In this document: piece after piece, positions 1 through 36,825 of the stretch
Numbering within the stretch: the stretch's first letter is position 1
How the letters are laid out: each line of letters opens with the position of its first letter
From: Escherichia phage slur16
Sequence record: NC_028248.1
Strand: one strand, 5' to 3'
DNA length: 64,000 nt
The notes under the pieces: model-generated
What the model was told of the DNA's origin: nothing
What the model saw: the letters and a program-made list of their open reading frames with translations, nothing else
The model's database searches: none
Made by a program: the position numbers and the translations under genes

Positions 1-2615
1 AACAAGTCAGTGGTGGCCTTGTTGGTATTGGCAATCAAGGTGTTGAGGTCAGTTTTTGCGGTAGTTATCTTGCCGTCAAGGGTGGTATAGTTTTTAGATA
101 CCGTCGCGTTTGTCTGACTAATCTTTTGATCCAGAGTTTCAGATGTCCTGTTCAAAAGATCCACAGTGGCCTGGTTAGTGCTCAAGATGCTTGCGTCAAG
201 TTCTGTTCTCTGAGTATTGATCTTACCATCCAGAGTTTTATCTCCGGCTAAATACCCGCTCTCAACTCCCTCTATCTGCTCTACCAGCTCACCTTTGGCG
301 GCAACCAATTTCTCATCTAAAGCCTCTGTCTTTTTGTTCAGAAGATCAGTAGTTGCTTTATTGGTTGTCTCAATCAGGGATGCCAATCTTCCACTTTCAG
401 TGTTCAGATCGTTGGTGAACTTGTTCTGTGCAGCAACAAGTTTCCTATCCAGCGCTGTGATATTGCCATTGACATCCTCAAACTTCTGAGTTGTCTCTGT
501 AACTACCGCACCTATTCTGTCTCCAAGTTGCTGGAATGCCTCATCTACCCTACCATCCATGTACCTGTTAAGTTCTGTGACACGATTTTCAACCTCTTCA
601 ATAGAGGAATCCAAAGTGCTCATCAACTCTTTATAAGTTTCTGTCTTTTTGAATTCAGCATCTATCTGAGGCATCAAATCCTCAATAGAGGTGTAGCAGC
701 GTGCAGCGCATTCTACAAACTGAGAACTACCAAAAGCGTTTGTGGTTCGAATATACCAATAATAAACCTTATCGTTCTGCAGACCTTCAGATGTCCAAGT
801 TGAACCAACACCCATACGGGTGGCGTTTGAAGTAACGGTTGCATCACTGGTGTCGGGCAACCTTGTCATACCGGATGTCCAAAAGTCATACTGGGTGCTA
901 ACACTTGCTAAATCCCTACTATGCGGAATCAAGGTGATAGCAAAGTATCCTTGCTTAACCTCTACAGAAACCGGAGCTTCAGGTGCCTGAATGTTAAACT
1001 CACAATACGCTTCTGGAGATACACCACCTTTATAAGATGTTGCAACAACAGTGGCTGTGTAGGAACCTTTAGTCAGACCTTCAACACGGACAAACTGCTC
1101 AACTGTCTGTGCTGTCCAAACAATCTCTCCGTTCTTTCTTACCTGCACAATATTTTGAGCGTAAGTCCCAACGTTGTCCCAGGCCAAAACACCGTGAGTT
1201 ACTTCCCCAGCTTGGAGAACGGAGTATCTGAAGTTTTGCGGCTGAGCTACACCGGACGGGGATATCGGAATATCTACATCGCCGGAATCCGGAAGTTGCC
1301 CTGTGGCATCATTCCACTCTTTAGCATCTTGACGAAGTTTTACCTTGACACCGCCCTTTTTGGTGAACTCCCATTCAAGAACCCTCATTTCTTGGCCCAC
1401 GATACCAATACTTGGGAGGTCCATTGTAACATAACGGCCAGGCTTAAATTTAAAACCTCGCATATTGCAGGTGACTTCAATAATCCTGCCAGCTCTAGCA
1501 CGTCTTAGGAAGATTGCAGAAACACGCTGAGCTTGATAAGGACTGGTAACAAAGCGATAATCTATATCGATTATCTTTCTTTCTCCATCCTTCTCTATCC
1601 ACTCTGGGACAAACACTGATGGAAAATCTGTTTCAGAATACCCTTTGGTCGGGCTAGTGAATCTGCCAGTTATTGTGTTGGATCTTTTGTCAAATGAGGC
1701 TTCCGGATAGATCTTAACCTCACCACAGACACAGTCCTCACTAAGTGTCATTGTTGCTGGGCCATAGTATGCACCAACCAGCAAACCATACTTACCAGCA
1801 ACATAACTAAGATCTGCACCGCAAGCTTTCAGCATTTCTGCCATAATACTTGCTGGGGCCTCATCCATGTCAAACTCACCGTTAATGGTGTAACGGCGCT
1901 CACTGGTTCCGTCTGCGTTTTTTACCGCCTCGTCGCATATGTTGGCAGCCTCCTTGAAGGACTCCCAGTTGATGGTTTCGTCAGGACATTTAAGGTACGT
2001 TCTTAAATAGTCTAGGATCACCAAGGCAGCGTTATTGGTGTACACCTCTTTACTGATACGAGGATCATAGCATTTTTTACCAATCTTGACGAGTGTAACG
2101 TTTGGCAACCCAAAAGGAAACTTGTTAGGGTCAAACCTGAAGCTGGCACGTAGCCAACTGATCCCTCTACCTATCATGTCAGGTGACCATGATGGGCAGT
2201 GTGTACCCATGAAAGGATCAGATGTTTTTCTGTCGTTATGTAGCTCCCACGATACCAGATCTCCATACGAGGAAATAGGATTACCGTCGATAAGTATATC
2301 TTCTATACCTTCCAGAGGGTGATTGGCAAGAACAATAGCACAATGGAGGGTTCTGTCGCTATCCTGCTCCAAAAACGCAAGCAATCCAGATGTGCGTGTC
2401 TTTCCATACACTACAGAGCAAGGTGCAGCAGAAGATCTGAGAAGCTTTTGTCTATCTTGCTGACTTCTGTAAGATTTGTTGCCCTCAAAAATCTTATCCA
2501 AAGTTCTGGTGGTCACAGTGTTCAGGCTGTCAGCCAGAGCTGCCTTGGATGCGTTCCAGTCATAACTTGAAGATCTTGCAGAAGCAACGATGTTATCAAT
2601 CATTGCAATTGGCAT
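1..2615 (-). CDS. Host-specificity / central tail fiber protein, lambda gpJ-like (partial; N-terminal ~870 aa in window, C-terminus beyond position 1)
   Basis: Minus-strand frame is open from ATG (revcomp of cat at 2613-2615, overlapping the stop of the upstream gene) to the window edge; spot-checked codons at 3-59, 900-959, 1440-1499 and 1983-2039 contain no stops. Not in the ORF track because it has no stop in the window. Translation contains GYFAITLIPH...YDFWTS...YYWYIRTTNAFGSSQFVE, which matches my recollection of the lambda J central region; the C-terminal part has tandem TN(K/Q)AT(T/V)DLLN repeats. Confidence 0.55.
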   Translation of the reverse strand, partial: MPIAMIDNIVASARSSSYDWNASKAALADSLNTVTTRTLDKIFEGNKSYRSQQDRQKLLRSSAAPCSVVYGKTRTSGLLAFLEQDSDRTLHCAIVLANHPLEGIEDILIDGNPISSYGDLVSWELHNDRKTSDPFMGTHCPSWSPDMIGRGISWLRASFRFDPNKFPFGLPNVTLVKIGKKCYDPRISKEVYTNNAALVILDYLRTYLKCPDETINWESFKEAANICDEAVKNADGTSERRYTINGEFDMDEAPASIMAEMLKACGADLSYVAGKYGLLVGAYYGPATMTLSEDCVCGEVKIYPEASFDKRSNTITGRFTSPTKGYSETDFPSVFVPEWIEKDGERKIIDIDYRFVTSPYQAQRVSAIFLRRARAGRIIEVTCNMRGFKFKPGRYVTMDLPSIGIVGQEMRVLEWEFTKKGGVKVKLRQDAKEWNDATGQLPDSGDVDIPISPSGVAQPQNFRYSVLQAGEVTHGVLAWDNVGTYAQNIVQVRKNGEIVWTAQTVEQFVRVEGLTKGSYTATVVATSYKGGVSPEAYCEFNIQAPEAPVSVEVKQGYFAITLIPHSRDLASVSTQYDFWTSGMTRLPDTSDATVTSNATRMGVGSTWTSEGLQNDKVYYWYIRTTNAFGSSQFVECAARCYTSIEDLMPQIDAEFKKTETYKELMSTLDSSIEEVENRVTELNRYMDGRVDEAFQQLGDRIGAVVTETTQKFEDVNGNITALDRKLVAAQNKFTNDLNTESGRLASLIETTNKATTDLLNKKTEALDEKLVAAKGELVEQIEGVESGYLAGDKTLDGKINTQRTELDASILSTNQATVDLLNRTSETLDQKISQTNATVSKNYTTLDGKITTAKTDLNTLIANTNKATTDL

Positions 2616-17580: not shown

Positions 17581-17829
17581 TTATCCTCTCCTGCGCTTAG
17601 CTTTCGCAGCAGCTGCGGCAGCCTTCTGCTCCCGCTCCATTTCCCTGTTTTGGACGGTATCTAGGAATTCTTCGATATCAAGATACTCACAGAGCTTCAG
17701 GAAATACGCCATATCTGCAAGATTTAGCGATTCAAAATTTTCCCCTTTGAAATTCTTGAGCACCCTGCACCAAAGAAAGTCGAACCAATTGAGTGAACTG
17801 TTCTTGGCTGCCCACTCACTGGCCCTCAC
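17581..17829 (-). CDS. Tail assembly chaperone-like small protein
   Basis: 82-aa ORF with GTG start and its own AAGG RBS, directly upstream of the tape measure gene. Confidence 0.35.
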   Translation of the reverse strand: MRASEWAAKNSSLNWFDFLWCRVLKNFKGENFESLNLADMAYFLKLCEYLDIEEFLDTVQNREMEREQKAAAAAAKAKRRRG

Positions 17830-17840
17830 AACAACCTTGC

Positions 17841-18314
17841 TTATTCCTGCTCTTCCGGAGTCTGATCCAGATTGTTCACCTGCTGAATCATACCCATCTG
17901 CTGTAACATCTCCAGAAGGCTTCCTAAACCGTCTTGTGTGAAAAAACAGCCGTAGTTAACCTCCAGAACCTTACCTGCCAGCTTAATCATCTCCAGCAGA
18001 TGCCCTGCAAACACAACATCCGGGTTAAGCCTATCCACACCATCTACGGTAATATCTTCGAACAAGATTTTAAATAGCTCTTCAATGGAGTTATCATCAA
18101 GTTCTTGGAACAGGTAAGCCAGGGCTGTAGGAAGGACCTCTGCCATATTCTGACCACCTGAGAGAATAGATCCACCGATAGCACCTAGCGGGACAGCCAC
18201 AATCTTACCGATTTTAGGCATGTTTTTCATTGCTTTCATCGGCCCCCAGTGGGTGATCACAAAGTTGTGCCCTGCTAAATCAATCTCTGTTGTAGGTCTA
18301 AAGTTTACAGCCAT
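17841..18314 (-). CDS. Tail assembly chaperone-like protein
   Basis: 157-aa acidic ORF between the tail tube and tape measure genes. Confidence 0.4.
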   Translation of the reverse strand: MAVNFRPTTEIDLAGHNFVITHWGPMKAMKNMPKIGKIVAVPLGAIGGSILSGGQNMAEVLPTALAYLFQELDDNSIEELFKILFEDITVDGVDRLNPDVVFAGHLLEMIKLAGKVLEVNYGCFFTQDGLGSLLEMLQQMGMIQQVNNLDQTPEEQE

Positions 18315-31062: not shown

Positions 31063-31139
31063 TGGTCTCCACGGAGTGATTCGAACACTCGACCTCCTGA
31101 TCCCAAATCAGGCGCTCTACCAAGCTGAGCTACGCGGAG
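31063..31139 (-). tRNA. tRNA-Pro (anticodon UGG)
   Basis: Folded by hand: acceptor CUCCGCG/CGUGGAG with C1:G72, anticodon stem CCUGA/UCAGG, loop UUUGGGA with G37, T-loop UUCGAAU, encoded CCA. Confidence 0.85.
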
Positions 31140-31150
31140 TATTTATTATT

Positions 31151-31225
31151 TGGTGGCCCTGGGTGGAATTGAACCACCGTCTGGCGATTATGAGTCGCTT
31201 GCTTGAACCTTCCAGCTACAGGGCC
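31151..31225 (-). tRNA. tRNA-Met (anticodon CAU; elongator type, tRNA-Ile2 not excluded)
   Basis: Acceptor GGCCCUG/CAGGGCC, anticodon loop CUCAUAA, T-arm GGUGG-UUCAAUU-CCACC, encoded CCA; G1:C72 argues against initiator. Confidence 0.8.
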
Positions 31226-31226
31226 A

Positions 31227-31302
31227 TGGTGCTGATGGCAGGACTTGAACCTGCAACCTATTGATTACAAATCAATTGCACTACCAATTGTGCTACATCA
31301 GC
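31227..31302 (-). tRNA. tRNA-Thr (anticodon UGU)
   Basis: 76-nt cloverleaf: acceptor GCUGAUG/CAUCAGC, D-stem GCAC/GUGC, anticodon stem AUUGA/UCAAU with loop UUUGUAA, T-arm GCAGG-UUCAAGU-CCUGC, CCA. Confidence 0.85.
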
Positions 31303-31308
31303 AAAAAA

Positions 31309-31407
31309 GGTGCTAGGTGATGGAATCGAACCACCTATGTATTCAACGACTACCTCGTCTATTTTCAGGATTAAAAATCCTCGCCCTTGCCAAAGGGCTT
31401 ACCTAGC
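31309..31407 (-). tRNA. Aberrant tRNA-like element (99 nt; possible tRNA-Lys UUU derivative with ~26 extra nt)
   Basis: Perfect 7-bp acceptor pairing GCUAGGU/ACCUAGC, D-arm GCCC-UUUGGCAA-GGGC, T-arm GGUGG-UUCGAUU-CCAUC, 3' end ...ACC followed by UUUUUU (no encoded CCA). The anticodon position is a palindromic hairpin AGGAUU-UUU-AAUCCU (alternatively a 4-bp stem with UUUUUAA loop, anticodon UUU), and ~30 nt lie between it and the T-arm. Confidence 0.35.
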
Positions 31408-31505
31408 TCAGTATGTTGACCATGTTGCTAGTCGGCGATGACGACTGTAACATTTGATAATCCGGTTCTGCTTCCGGCTTTCGCTTAATTACAAGGTCAA
31501 CAATA

Positions 31506-31596
31506 TGGCTGAGGGTAATGGAATCGAACCATCATCGAGTCATCCTCAACGGGACGGTTTTCAAGACCGCTTGAGCACCATTGCTCCCTACCCTCA
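31506..31596 (-). tRNA. tRNA-Ser (anticodon UGA)
   Basis: Type II tRNA: acceptor UGAGGGU/ACCCUCA, anticodon arm GCGGU-CUUGAAA-ACCGU, long variable arm (UUGAG-GAUGA-CUCGA), T-arm GAUGG-UUCGAUU-CCAUU, CCA. Confidence 0.8.
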
Positions 31597-31710
31597 TTTA
31601 TAAACAATACTGATAATGACACTGATTTTCGAGCAGTTAGTGACTAGTATAAACGACGATAAATATCAATGCCATTATCTGTATGATTTATGCATTTAAA
31701 ACTATAAATT

Positions 31711-31797
31711 TGGTGGGGAGTGGTGGAGTCGAACCACCCGAGTCGTAATGACAATAGATTTACAGTCTACACCGCTACCTCTACGGGATAACTCCCC
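31711..31797 (-). tRNA. tRNA-Tyr (anticodon GUA)
   Basis: Acceptor GGGGAGU/ACUCCCC, anticodon arm GUAGA-CUGUAAA-UCUAU, long variable arm, T-arm GGUGG-UUCGACU-CCACC, CCA. Confidence 0.8.
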
Positions 31798-31801
31798 AAT
31801 T

Positions 31802-31876
31802 TGGCACCCCGTACTGGACTCGAACCAGTGTCAACGGCTTAGAAGGCCGCTGCTTTATCCACTAAGCTAACAGGGC
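31802..31876 (-). tRNA. tRNA-Arg (anticodon UCU)
   Basis: Acceptor GCCCUGU/ACGGGGU (G-U wobbles), D-stem GCUU/AAGC, anticodon arm GCGGC-CUUCUAA-GCCGU, T-arm CUGG-UUCGAGU-CCAG, CCA. Confidence 0.8.
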
Positions 31877-31933: not shown

Positions 31934-31962
31934 AATATTACACTGTTAAGCAAAGTTTGTCA
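31934..31962 (-). promoter_or_regulatory. Sigma70-type promoter driving the tRNA operon
   Basis: Minus strand TTGACA (plus 31957-31962), 17-nt spacer, TAATAT (plus 31934-31939); located ~55 nt upstream of tRNA-Arg. Confidence 0.55.
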
Positions 31963-31972
31963 AGAAAATATT

Positions 31973-32313
31973 TTAGCTATTGCTAACAGGTTGTATTTCT
32001 GTGGTAAATGGCATAAAAGGTGCTGGTTTTTCAGCCTCTTCTACTACCACCTCTTCCTCTTCACCAAACATCTCATCATATTCTTCCTGCATTCGGTCTG
32101 CCTTATCAAGAACATACTCTGCAATGCTTTGACGAATATTTTGTTTGGTTTTCGGGTCCAACATCAGCTCTCTTAGAACTTTGTGAGCTTCTGGAACCAT
32201 CGCTATAAAAGATTCCTTCATATCGAGGATGTTCTTCTCTAGCTGAATGGCGTTGGACTCCTCTTTCAGAGGTCTGCCTCTACGGCGACGCTTTTTAGTT
32301 GTATCCGCCATGT
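31973..32313 (-). CDS. Small basic protein with AT-hook-like motif (KRRRRGRPLK), hypothetical DNA-binding
   Basis: Start set at the Met of MADTTKKRRRRGRP, preceded by GGAGGAAAC RBS; the longer track ORF extends into a GC-rich non-coding island. Confidence 0.4.
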
Positions 32314-32659
32314 TTCCTCCATTATCACGTGATAGGTGGATTTTATCATAGCAAATACTGATTGTCAAGTTCGCCGCAGGGTGGTATTCCCTGCGACTTG
32401 TCCAGCGTCCTGGACCAGCAAGACCCAACAAGTGGGTTTTCCAGCTATACCCATTACCGCGCACAGGCTCGACCTTATTACAGGTTGGCTGGGGTCACAT
32501 CGTCATGTGCTGGCTGCCCCTACCATTTTAAGTGTGGTGCACTATCAAGCCCTCTAAGGGGAACTCAGCTTTCTCCGAACCCTGTTTCAAAGCATCCGGA
32601 GATAAAGCCATCAAATTCATCTTTAAATTGGATATTCATCATGATACACGAAAACAACC

Positions 32660-34816: not shown

Positions 34817-35371
34817 TTACTCCACGCTGTCAATAGCAAGACTCATTGCAATACGGTATGCCTCTTCTAATGGTAAGAGTCTCCCCCACACATCCCAACC
34901 GACATCAAACTGCCTGCCAAACAACTGCTGTGTGGTTCCGTGAGCATGACCGAACAGTTGGACCGATCCGTGAGGCTTTCTGTTCCACTTTGCAAACTGG
35001 TAATGGCTCATACAGATCAAATTCTTGTTGTGGCGAAGCTCGTAATAATCTACAACCTCATGACCGAACTCTTTCATAATTCTGACAGTCGTCCTTGTGT
35101 CATGGTTACCACGAACAAGAATAATATGTCCGTTCAACATATTTAGAACATCTGGGAGCAATTTGTTAATATTCTTATCATTAGTGCACGCAATATCTCC
35201 TAAGTGAAACACAGTGTCTGCAGGTGACACAACAGAGTTCCACTTGGTGATGATCCCCGCATTCATACTGTCAAGATTGTGATCATACTGAGATCTGTGT
35301 TTTTGACATGAGTCAAACTCCATGACCCGCTGGTGGAGAAAGTGTGTGTCGCTTGTTACAAAGTATTTCAT
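34817..35371 (-). CDS. Calcineurin-like metallophosphoesterase (putative polynucleotide 2',3'/3' phosphatase)
   Basis: Start trimmed to MKYFVTSDTHF; metallophosphoesterase motifs DTHF, HLGDI, VRGNHD, GHAH. Confidence 0.65.
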   Translation of the reverse strand: MKYFVTSDTHFLHQRVMEFDSCQKHRSQYDHNLDSMNAGIITKWNSVVSPADTVFHLGDIACTNDKNINKLLPDVLNMLNGHIILVRGNHDTRTTVRIMKEFGHEVVDYYELRHNKNLICMSHYQFAKWNRKPHGSVQLFGHAHGTTQQLFGRQFDVGWDVWGRLLPLEEAYRIAMSLAIDSVE

Positions 35372-35378
35372 ACATTCC

Positions 35379-35789
35379 TCATTTAAGTTTAATGCAGTTT
35401 TTAAGCTGGCGTTCCATACGATCCACAACCCTGTCTGGAACATCATGAATGCTTTTACTACCATGGCGGTTTTCAACCACGATTACGGTATAACTATACC
35501 TATGACTGATCGCCATGTCAATATATTCTTGCACATATTTTTCTTTTGTAAATGTATTACTTACCACGATACGGTCGTATCCCATACGCATCATATCTTC
35601 TACGTTATCTTTGCACCATTTTGCTGCAAGTGTTACTTTACTTGCATCCCAGTTGTAATTTCCATCATCGTCGTACCAGAACATGTCGTTCTCAAAATGT
35701 GGATACAGACCTTCTAAAGATAGCGCACTTGCCAGTGTTGATTTGCCAGACCCTGGTAGACCACGCACGATATATAGCATTTTAGACAT
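35379..35789 (-). CDS. P-loop polynucleotide 5'-kinase-like protein (T4 Pnk kinase-domain-like)
   Basis: Start at MSKMLYIVRG preceded by GGAGG RBS; Walker A GLPGSGKST, downstream VVSNTF, resembling the T4 Pnk kinase domain layout. Confidence 0.55.
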   Translation of the reverse strand: MSKMLYIVRGLPGSGKSTLASALSLEGLYPHFENDMFWYDDDGNYNWDASKVTLAAKWCKDNVEDMMRMGYDRIVVSNTFTKEKYVQEYIDMAISHRYSYTVIVVENRHGSKSIHDVPDRVVDRMERQLKNCIKLK

Positions 35790-35889
35790 AGTAATCCTCC
35801 GTTTTAATTTCAACGATAGTATACCTAACTGTTTTGTTAATTTCAAGTGTTGACACTAGGTTATTTGTGTGGCAGGATAGACTGACAAA

Positions 35890-36825
35890 ATGACAAATGA
35901 GGAACGTATGATGAAGTATTTTAATGCAGACGACCTAGTTGACAAAGGTCTTGTAACCAGCAGATATCACCCAGACCTTGGGTTAAAGATCTATAAATAT
36001 GCCAGAAAAGTATTCTACAACAACTTATGGCATTTGTCTCCTCGATTACTGGAGTGCCGAGGCATTGTTGTCGGTAATGAAGGAAATGTTGTGGCATGGC
36101 CCTTTACAAAAGTGTTTAACTTGGGAGAAAACTCCACCAACCTGCCTGACAATAAGCTTGTGACGGCGGTAGAGAAAAAGAACGGATTCCTTGGTGTGGT
36201 GTCATCTCATAAAGGTGAACTATTGTTCTCAACAACCGGGTCTCTTGATTCTCCATATTGTAACCTTGCAAAGGAAACCATCCAGGAGCAATGTGGTAAT
36301 TTAGATCTTATCAAGAAGGTTATGGGCAATGAAAATATGACATTCATGTTTGAAATTTGTCACCCCTCAGATCCGCATATTGTTCAGGAAGATCATGGCG
36401 CATATTTGATAGGTTGCAGATATAATGATTCTGGAATAATGCTACCAGAAGCAGCTTTAGATGGGATTGCCAAATACCTTGGTGCAAAACGTCCTCACAC
36501 TGTGCGTGAAATTCCGTTCAGTTATGCAAAAGAATTAGCTGCAGAAACAAGAGGTGAAGGGTATATGATTCGTAAGCCTTACTACCCTTATGATCTGCAG
36601 CTGAAGATTAAGTCTCCATACTATCTGGCACGGAAGGCCGTAATGAGGGGTAAAGCTTGGAAGATTTGGGATGATGATATCTTTAAACGTGTTGACGAAG
36701 AGTTTTACGGCATGGTAAACTTCATTCGTAACAACTACACAGAGGATGTATGGAACTGCCTCCTGGAGCAGGAACGCCGTGAGATACTCGATTACTATTT
36801 CCACAACGAGAACTATATGCAATGA
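35890..36825 (+). CDS. ATP-dependent RNA ligase-like nucleotidyltransferase (putative Rnl)
   Basis: Ligase motif I KxNG (VEKKNGF), motif III-like FMFEI, motif IV EGYMIRK, motif V LKIKSP; 311 aa without a DNA-ligase OB domain; a separate DNA ligase exists at 39297. Start may be the downstream ATG pair with GAGGA RBS. Confidence 0.5.
   Translation: MTNEERMMKYFNADDLVDKGLVTSRYHPDLGLKIYKYARKVFYNNLWHLSPRLLECRGIVVGNEGNVVAWPFTKVFNLGENSTNLPDNKLVTAVEKKNGFLGVVSSHKGELLFSTTGSLDSPYCNLAKETIQEQCGNLDLIKKVMGNENMTFMFEICHPSDPHIVQEDHGAYLIGCRYNDSGIMLPEAALDGIAKYLGAKRPHTVREIPFSYAKELAAETRGEGYMIRKPYYPYDLQLKIKSPYYLARKAVMRGKAWKIWDDDIFKRVDEEFYGMVNFIRNNYTEDVWNCLLEQERREILDYYFHNENYMQ

Follow-up and report, generated by a model that had tools for sequence, protein, structure and literature searches.

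In the tRNA operon of Escherichia phage slur16, an rV5-like phage, one gene of 99 nt (positions 31309–31407, minus strand) combines a tRNA-like acceptor stem, D arm and T arm with an aberrant anticodon region and a long extra segment, which raises the question of whether it is a damaged tRNA, an unusual tRNA or an RNA with another role. Positions here and below refer to the window, that is, the whole 64,000-nt stretch of sequence record NC_028248.1 that was analyzed. We show that this element is a functional gene, that it encodes a structured RNA in the shape of a tRNA, and that this RNA is one of a discrete family, which we call the Vequintavirinae five-arm tRNA-like RNA. The family is well supported, was previously undescribed and is present in many enterobacterial phages.

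Structure of the 99-nt element

Read from 5ʹ to 3ʹ, the element has the order GCUAGGU-AA-GCCC-UUUGGCAA-GGGC-G-AGGAUUUUUAAUCCU-GAAAAUA-GACGA-GGUAG-UCGUU-GAAUACAUA-GGUGG-UUCGAUU-CCAUC-ACCUAGC-A-CC. An earlier note on this DNA had described an intact acceptor stem, D arm and T arm (loop UUCGAUU), a palindromic hairpin in place of the anticodon arm, about 30 extra nucleotides and the lack of an encoded CCA, and all of these were found on the minus strand at the above positions. The acceptor stem GCUAGGU/ACCUAGC forms seven of seven pairs. The hairpin AGGAUUUUUAAUCCU, 15 nt in length, can be read in two ways, both of them possible: as 6 bp closing a 3-nt loop or as 4 bp closing the loop UUUUUAA. 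The extra nucleotides amount to a variable region of 31 nt, composed of the linker GAAAAUA (7 nt), the hairpin GACGA-GGUAG-UCGUU and the linker GAAUACAUA (9 nt). The 3ʹ end reads A73-CC-U, with ACC-U in place of CCA, and runs on into a U run; CCA is encoded in all six neighboring tRNAs.

The minimum free energy fold of the element was a five-armed cloverleaf of −34.2 kcal/mol (z = −3.66), and none of 200 shuffled sequences was as stable. ARAGORN reported tRNA-??? at exactly 31309–31407. The scoring with a tRNA covariance model that the earlier note had proposed gave 35.5 bits (E = 1.8e-5) with the Rfam tRNA model (RF00005), against a gathering score of 29. This threshold was passed only with a non-standard, 4-bp anticodon stem (one pair dropped, anticodon UUU) and with the extra arm treated as a 26-nt insertion, and the standard tRNA fold that the note had named as the outcome against it was not recovered. 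The 4-base anticodon AUCC on a UUUU/AAAA stem that ARAGORN drew was rejected, since it leaves GAGG unpaired, is weaker in phage Av-05 and is impossible in other genera. We chose the AGGA/UCCU stem instead because AGGA/UCCU covaries. ARAGORN reported no tmRNA in the window, and the Rfam tmRNA_permuted match was noise of 17.4 bits elsewhere in the window. The Rfam scan matched the RNA family to no family beyond tRNA and tRNA-Sec.

Distribution and covariation of the family

The blastn search found the element in 112 phage records at 98–100% identity. Its family extends to five of the six Vequintavirinae genera (Vequintavirus, Avunavirus, Seunavirus, Mydovirus and Henunavirus), one N4-like phage and metagenomic contigs, together giving 37 distinct sequences with one copy per genome. 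Diverged copies are those of Av-05 (Avunavirus) and Salmonella phage KE22 (Seunavirus); pattern scans and blastn also found the Seunavirus phages PVP-SE1, SSE121, GAP31, 4MG and Csp-D17, Mydovirus phages of Klebsiella, Raoultella and Proteus, Erwinia Henunavirus phages, and IMG/VR and metagenome contigs. The N4-like carrier is Salmonella phage vB_SenP_UTK0002 (Schitoviridae), whose copy is 88% identical to the version of the Erwinia myophage, a likeness that implies horizontal transfer between unrelated phage families. The RNA was absent from the tRNA clusters of two Certrevirus phages, even with the model filters off. One scan of representative genomes of 185,579 species with ATACATAGGNGGTTNGANTCC found no homologue in bacteria or archaea; a bacterial or prophage origin was dropped, the sole match being a chance hit in Sporosarcina in which the fold is absent. 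A loose gapped pattern scan of IMG/VR returned essentially chance matches only.

A covariance model, R1, was built from 23 of the 37 sequences. Members scored 84–120 bits, and ordinary tRNAs of the same loci at most 28 bits. The window copy scored 97 bits (E = 2e-22), a value that is partly circular because this copy is in the seed, whereas the 84–120 bits of independent members are not; the window's own tRNAs reached at most 27 bits. In the alignment of 37 sequences, 98.6% of cells were in standard pairs and 13 of the 22 pairs had changed on both sides. In 500 shuffles, the pairing percentage, the number of double-changed cells and the covariation score were never as high as observed, and pairing fell to 31–46% in slid-partner controls. 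All helices except the anticodon stem were 100% paired, and compensatory changes were found in every helix, with double-sided changes in five of seven acceptor pairs and covariation in three of four D-stem pairs. The tertiary pair G19:C56 is replaced by U19:A56 in 11 sequences (D loop UUUGUCAA, T loop UUAGAUU), and because it covaries, the L-shaped elbow is under selection. The fifth hairpin, variable in sequence and length, is present in every member and shows compensation, as in GACGA/UCGUU versus GACGG/CCGUU (Av-05) and CAUUCAC/GUGGUG versus CAUUUAC/GUAGUG, and further in GCC/GGC versus GUC/GAC, AGC/GCU and UCC/GGA. The comparison with related phages, likewise proposed in the earlier note, has thus revealed homologous elements in other genera with compensatory base changes, and on this cross-genus conservation the element is more than a product of chance.

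The members share a common plan. The acceptor stem has 7 bp, nearly always with G1-C72 and C2-G71. Invariant G26 and G44 flank a 4-bp (at times 5-bp) stem, and the "anticodon" arm is 14, 15 or 16 nt long, never 17. The linker GAAAA(N), a variable hairpin and the linker (N)AUACAUA follow, directly before a standard T arm. AUACAUA is invariant in 37 of 37 distinct sequences; the patterns used to find members contained part of it, except one 5ʹ pattern and the blastn searches, and the homologues from these independent searches also all carry it. We considered AUACAUA as a small-RNA seed and rejected it, as its complement TATGTATT occurs four times in the window versus 2.65 expected, one of them being the element itself. 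The variable region, 31 nt in the window copy, is 38–41 nt in relatives. Outside the rV5/Av-05 clade, all sequences encode U73-CCA; within it, positions 73–76 drift (ACCU, ACAU, UACA, CACA). In most phages the gene begins 2 nt past the CCA of the preceding tRNA, which is the spacing expected for RNase P processing. One subtype of the fifth arm, with a short covarying stem around the loop N-GAA-CUAAC-AGUA-N, has kept the loop GAACUAACAGUA across Henunavirus, Mydovirus, the N4-like phage and metagenomic contigs (loci L152, L153, L155, L159, L160, L021, L184, L199, L174, L180 and L190; alignment columns 52–74). The opposed GAA and AGUA strands of this loop appear to fit the bulged-G (sarcin-ricin/loop E) protein-binding consensus.

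The family is absent from Rfam, and no description of it was found in the literature searched. Annotators' labels for the RNA vary among tRNA-Lys, tRNA-OTHER, tRNA-TERM, pseudo-tRNA and hypothetical protein, some records miss it, and in the Erwinia Henunavirus records it is labeled "tRNA-TERM, suppressor". The founding rV5 paper reports six tRNAs only. Annotation pipelines should drop the labels tRNA-Lys and suppressor tRNA for this RNA. The carriers include model and therapeutic phages, namely rV5, the BASEL Vequintavirus phages, PVP-SE1, the Klebsiella Mydovirus phages and the Erwinia phages.

Loop classes and possible roles of the RNA

The anticodon stem covaries family-wide, and the loop is specific to the lineage. 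The UCA class, with 13 distinct divergent sequences and three kinds of fifth arm, has the loop N-AUCAA-R (mostly CAUCAAA), in which AUCAA is invariant. The NCC class (16 sequences) has CAUCCA, CUUCCA, CCUCCA, CCGCCA, CAGCCA and one CCUCAA. The Av-05 class has UUUAUAA, one contig has GUGAUA, and the rV5 class has UUUUUAA. Read as anticodons, these loops give UCA, UCC/GCC, UAU, GAU and UUU, each followed by A37. Near-identical Mydovirus sequences differ, over 109 nt, only at loop positions 33/34 (AU, UU or CG), with C32, C35 and A37 fixed. By the E. coli identity sets listed in PMC9976931, the NCC class holds the full glycine set (U73, G1-C72, C2-G71, C35 and C36) and the rV5 class the lysine set (anticodon UUU and A73). 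The Lys-like loop is derived in the family, not ancestral. A family whose loop is exchanged between lineages, the Lys-like one being specific to the rV5 lineage, had not been foreseen in the earlier note. In design, the RNA unites a conserved tRNA core with an invariant junction and with a lineage-specific loop that has matching synthetase identity elements.

Two roles suggested earlier, a regulatory tRNA-like RNA and a decoy for anticodon nucleases, are compatible with all of the results and jointly make up the class of explanation that we prefer. Our tentative choice, held with less than even confidence, is a tRNA mimic whose specificity loop can be exchanged; in this phage it would imitate tRNA-Lys and probably take part in conflicts over the tRNAs of the host. 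Excision of the element would be the work of RNase P and 3ʹ exonucleases, as for the neighboring tRNAs, and from the covarying D-loop/T-loop contact we infer an L-shaped fold. As C residues block RNase T, the U run should be trimmed back as far as CC, and the resulting ACC would be completed to ACCA by the host CCA-adding enzyme. The product would be not an ordinary decoder but a mimic of two modules. The first would be a constant chassis, made of the acceptor/T/D core, the GAAAA and AUACAUA linkers and the fifth hairpin and bound by a constant partner; the second, the exchangeable anticodon-like loop, would choose the tRNA imitated, which in rV5-like phages would be tRNA-Lys(UUU) by means of UUUUUAA and A73. 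The target of the RNA would be a protein that recognizes the tRNA-Lys anticodon loop, which the RNA would keep occupied or divert: an anticodon nuclease such as PrrC (of which tRNA-Lys is the classical target), RloC or one of the PARIS kind, or else some other toxin or enzyme directed at tRNAs. The short anticodon arm of the mimic would bar it from normal decoding and so spare the real tRNA pool. In phage T5, a tRNA-Lys neutralizes PARIS, a tRNA-cleaving defense (PMC11464382). The window also encodes, near the tRNA operon, the kind of kinase, phosphoesterase and RNA ligase set with which T4 repairs PrrC-cut tRNA-Lys.

Several points weigh against this mimic. The decoy role is suggested only by analogy and circumstance, and a tRNA that can be charged, and perhaps decodes, would account at least equally well for the encoded U73-CCA and full synthetase identity sets. 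The change to A73 in the rV5 lineage is a single event, and positions 73–76 drift within the rV5/Av-05 clade, so its link to lysyl-tRNA synthetase (LysRS) identity is weak evidence and may be coincidence. A host tRNA with UCA is no obvious target of defense, so a decoy leaves the largest loop class unexplained. An RNA repair cassette with an Rnl1-type ligase, which is encoded near the operon, is widespread in phages without the RNA, and Certrevirus lacks the RNA. In Escherichia phage V18 (L003 1205–1290), a deletion has fused the 5ʹ half of tRNA-Tyr to the 3ʹ half of the element, with tRNA-Ser and the spacer gone, leaving a chimeric tRNA-like gene that scores 33 bits with the family model; the RNA is thus dispensable for growth in at least one host.

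A stronger version of the mimic, which we think unlikely, is a modular anti-defense device. The constant five-armed chassis would be processed, and perhaps charged, like a tRNA, its loop would be swapped (Lys-, Gly-, Ile- or opal-like) to give a non-decoding look-alike of the host tRNA under attack, and the AUACAUA/GAAAA junction would trap or block the enzyme. If true, this would be the first RNA decoy or inhibitor of tRNA-targeting immunity.

The main rival, for which we see some but distinctly limited probability, is that the RNA is a structurally non-canonical decoding tRNA. The window copy would then be a tRNA-Lys(UUU); once its CCA was complete, LysRS would charge it by way of UUU and A73, and EF-Tu would deliver it. 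Its relatives would be Gly(UCC/GCC), Ile(UAU/GAU) and weak opal readers; the odd anticodon arm and the extra domain would hide it from tRNA-Lys nucleases, making it a resistant substitute on the precedent of T5 tRNA-Lys (PMC11464382). The loop UUUUUAA, with U33, UUU, A37 and A38, resembles that of tRNA-Lys, and the identity sets described above, the U73-CCA encoded outside the rV5/Av-05 clade, the invariant A37, the conserved elbow contact and the passing of the Rfam tRNA threshold all fit a decoder. By ARAGORN, rV5 has no other tRNA-Lys.

We nevertheless favor the mimic over a normal decoder because of its arm length, position 33, the redundancy with tRNA-Gly, the TGA stops, and the linkers and fifth arm. 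The arm never has 17 nt, and its length differs by class. Position 33 is A or C in most members. The clusters of the NCC class also carry a canonical tRNA-Gly(UCC) (L154, L157, L162), with which its members would be redundant. The UCA class is the best conserved, yet TGA is a normal stop: TGA ends 8 of 58 genes at UCA-class loci versus 16 of 74 and 14 of 66 at those of other classes (small samples). As TGA stops are not depleted, the opal suppressor of the Erwinia annotation was rejected, and an efficient opal suppressor is unlikely. Such invariant single-stranded linkers and a fifth arm have no counterpart in any known tRNA. In E. coli, moreover, AAA is already the major Lys codon and is well served.

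It is also doubtful, though conceivable to a similar degree as the anti-defense device, that the RNA is a scaffold of tRNA shape whose linkers and fifth arm bind one constant partner, with a purpose other than defense. It might titrate or regulate an aminoacyl-tRNA synthetase, EF-Tu, a tRNA-modifying enzyme or a phage protein, or serve as a non-ribosomal aminoacyl donor. GAAAA and AUACAUA, invariant amid variable surroundings, and the fifth-arm loop kept across genera would suit such a partner, and phrog_3330, a conserved small basic protein, is always encoded in or beside the cluster. This protein is, however, also found in Certrevirus, which lacks the RNA, and none was seen in the 3-kb N4-like locus; a scaffold alone, moreover, does not explain the lineage-specific loops. 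Co-occurrence of the RNA with phrog_3330 or with the Rnl1 cassette was dropped as a lead, both being far more widespread than the RNA.

Quite improbable is a processing or punctuation element, whose tRNA-like fold would recruit RNase P to separate or stabilize the transcript, or which would act with the U run as a partial terminator. The element does sit between a 98-nt spacer and tRNA-Thr and is followed by U6, the scan flags its T arm and acceptor plus the U run as terminator-like, and T4 has tRNA-like stable RNAs in its tRNA operon. For such a purpose, however, an acceptor/T-arm minihelix would suffice; the D arm, elbow covariation, invariant linkers, class-specific loops and encoded CCA would have no explanation, and the U run is absent in other genera.

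Least probable by far is the decaying tRNA-Lys that the earlier note had considered: although CCA is not encoded, the anticodon arm is aberrant, the insertion is long and some annotators write tRNA-Pseudo or tRNA-OTHER, we rule out a decaying pseudogene because the family is conserved and covarying, the element being near-invariant in more than 100 rV5-like genomes, with compensatory substitutions in all helices versus Av-05 and other genera in a family of five genera, with the odd features (short anticodon arm, extra hairpin, invariant linkers) being the conserved ones, and with a Lys-like loop that is derived.

Phage tRNA clusters are partly seen as counter-measures to tRNA-cleaving immunity, and only canonical tRNAs have been considered so far. 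Either outcome would be of interest, a decoding tRNA with a 15-nt anticodon arm and a fifth arm or a mimic with another role.

Genomic setting and known systems

The tRNA region of the window is 100% identical to that of Escherichia phage slur12 (genus Vequintavirus). The element lies between a 98-nt spacer, after tRNA-Ser, and the U6 spacer before tRNA-Thr, and a sigma-70-like sequence upstream of tRNA-Arg is likely, from its consensus match, the promoter of the operon. Coordinates are collected in Table 1.

Table 1. Features of the element, its operon and related loci (window positions unless a locus is named)
Feature	Position	Strand	Remarks
tRNA-like RNA gene	31309..31407	-	G1 at 31407, C75 at 31309; ARAGORN, Rfam tRNA model, family model R1, minimum free energy fold
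Acceptor stem, 5ʹ strand GCUAGGU	31401..31407	-	Partner 31312-31318; 7/7 pairs
D arm GCCC-UUUGGCAA-GGGC	31383..31398	-	A8 A9 directly before
Anticodon-like hairpin AGGA-UUUUUAA-UCCU, 15 nt	31367..31381	-	Between invariant G26 and G44
Linker J1 GAAAAUA	31360..31366	-	GAAAA core nearly invariant in family (alignments)
Fifth (extra) hairpin GACGA-GGUAG-UCGUU	31345..31359	-	Computed fold; hairpin here in every relative
Linker J2 GAAUACAUA	31336..31344	-	Contains AUACAUA, family-wide motif
T arm GGUGG-UUCGAUU-CCAUC	31319..31335	-	Rfam alignment and family covariation
Acceptor 3ʹ strand ACCUAGC, discriminator A73 (31311), encoded CC (31310-31309)	31309..31318	-
U6 spacer	31303-31308	-	Just 3ʹ of element
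tRNA operon	31063..31876	-	Arg(UCU), Tyr(GUA), Ser(UGA), spacer, element, Thr(UGU), Met(CAU), Pro(UGG); ARAGORN and Rfam
Sigma-70-like promoter (likely) TTGACA-17-TAATAT	31935..31963	-	Consensus match, upstream of tRNA-Arg
Spacer with lambda-like part	31408-31490	-
phrog_3330 gene	31976-32314	-
phrog_3330 genes, other loci	L155 2216-2566; L156 2801 onwards; L204/L205 5977-6351
Metallophosphoesterase	34817-35476	-	Repair cassette (34817-36825)
P-loop kinase	35379-35846	-	Repair cassette; AAA_33 and weak polynucleotide-kinase match
T4 Rnl1-family RNA ligase	35890-36825	+	Repair cassette
Tail assembly chaperone, -1 frameshift	17581-18314	-	ORF 18314-17841; -1 frame open 17955 to 17581; T TTT TTC at 17940-17946
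UTK0002 copy of the RNA	L153 1501-1608		Unannotated, between tRNA-Ser(UGA) and tRNA-Asn
Aberrant tRNAs	L155 1424-1498; L159 1424-1498; L164 1351-1425; L154 1422-1498; L162 2804-2873; L163 2764-2833
Apparent HNH-type endonuclease ORF, PVP-SE1	L156 ~2020-2450		Unannotated

The spacer upstream of the element contains about 70 nt (UAAUUAAGCGAA-GCCGGAAGCAGAACCGGAU...CAG-GUCGUCAUCGCCGAC) that match phage lambda 44866–44952 at 83%, in the late leader between orf-64 and the S gene. It also matches, at 88%, the P1-like phages P7 and D6, just downstream of tRNA-Asn/Thr and on the same strand as transcription. It holds two hairpins, one of them compensatory (GGCG/CGCC in lambda and P7 versus GUCG/CGAC in the window), and had no Rfam match. 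The lambda-like spacer was rejected as a part of the family, being confined to rV5-like phages, lambda and P1/P7 and absent from the other Vequintavirinae genera.

An RNA healing-and-sealing cassette lies 3.4–5.4 kb from the tRNA operon. Phage T4 uses such a set of kinase, phosphoesterase and Rnl1-type ligase to repair tRNA-Lys cut by PrrC. Homologues of the ligase were found in 678 phage records, including phi92-like, Pseudomonas and Vibrio phages. The phrog_3330 protein is small, with a basic N-terminus (KKRRRRGRP) and no Pfam match, and is encoded in or beside every Vequintavirinae tRNA cluster, including that of Certrevirus. Further away, the tail assembly chaperone gene has a classical −1 programmed frameshift just upstream of the gene for a 778-aa tape-measure protein, with the slippery site T TTT TTC right after the opening of the −1 frame. 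A shifty tRNA for this frameshift was rejected as a role for the element, as the slippery site consists of Phe codons and is unrelated to UUU or Gly-like loops.

Other aberrant tRNAs occur in the same clusters, reported by ARAGORN as tRNA-??? with 2- or 4-base anticodons; one is found immediately upstream of the RNA in Mydovirus (tRNA-Ser in the records), and another near tRNA-Trp in GAP31 and 4MG. In PVP-SE1, the spacer between the RNA and tRNA-Leu holds an apparent HNH-type endonuclease open reading frame (ORF), with the motif VDHIDRDVNNNNISNLQVL read by eye, which would fit homing endonucleases shaping these tRNA clusters. Among the database records, about 19 "Campylobacter phage" entries (MG0656xx) were 99.5–100% identical to E. 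coli rV5-like phages over the tRNA region, which suggests mislabeled or contaminating phages in that submission.

Canonical and class II tRNAs (RF00005) are among the known systems nearest to the element. It shares with them the 7-bp acceptor stem, the D arm with G18 G19, the T arm UUCGAUU, the covarying D-loop/T-loop contact G19:C56, the place in a tRNA operon and a Rfam score above threshold, and most relatives encode N73-CCA. A canonical tRNA, however, has a 17-nt anticodon arm (5 bp and 7 nt, with U33 and a purine at 37), whereas that of the element has 15 nt and those of its family 14–16 nt. The variable region of 4–5 nt, or of about 10–24 nt joined near the core in class II, contrasts with 31 nt in the element, whose conserved single-stranded linkers of 7 and 9 nt plus hairpin exceed any class II variable arm in length. 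In place of the U8, A14, R15 and Y48 of tRNAs, the element and its family have A8, U14, U15 and A48, and the element has no encoded CCA. The Seunavirus, Mydovirus and Av-05 relatives had no RF00005 match at E ≤ 0.01.

With tRNA-Sec (RF01852), alongside which we placed allo-tRNA-like non-canonical tRNAs, the shared features are a D arm that may alternatively have a 6-bp stem and a 4-nt loop, a long extra arm and, in relatives, CAUCAAA versus the CUUCAAA of tRNA-Sec. The tRNA-Sec model was the best Rfam match for UCA-class members, at 37.6–39.1 bits against a gathering score of 47. The acceptor/T arrangement of tRNA-Sec is 8/5 with G73, whereas that of the family is 7/5 with U73 or A73; the UCA class has A33, and TGA is still a stop. 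The window copy itself has UUU, not UCA, and its best Rfam match is tRNA, not tRNA-Sec.

The anti-defense phage tRNAs, T5 tRNA-Lys against PARIS and T5 tRNA-Tyr against retron Eco7, share with the element a place in a phage tRNA cluster, the anticodon of a targeted host tRNA (Lys UUU) and an altered anticodon stem-loop (PMC11464382). They are canonical cloverleafs with few substitutions and demonstrated decoding, whereas the element, known here from its sequence, has a shortened arm and an extra domain. Bacillus cereus tRNA-Other, a pseudo-tRNA with a regulatory role, is reported to have no part in translation yet to give phenotypes on deletion (PMC3399842) and is, like the element, a tRNA-like gene that tRNA finders cannot type; it differs in being chromosomal, of standard length, unrelated in sequence and without an extra arm.

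The nearest analogues in kind are the species 1 and species 2 RNAs of T4 (rnaC and rnaD), non-tRNA stable RNAs in a phage tRNA operon. The fold of rnaC has, like that of the element, a stem resembling the acceptor, a canonical T arm and, ahead of this arm, an extra hairpin; rnaC differs in having 139 nt, with one long irregular arm replacing the D and anticodon arms. Homology was rejected, as R1 found only T4 tRNA-Thr and tRNA-Leu there (about 24–25 bits), and the likeness is one of kind, not of descent. To our knowledge, rnaC and rnaD have no known function, and rnaC has no known lineage-specific anticodon-like loop; the five-arm family may illuminate this 50-year-old puzzle. Measured against the features of the family itself, namely the R1 score, the five helices, G26/G44 and the GAAAA and AUACAUA linkers, the window copy has all of them.

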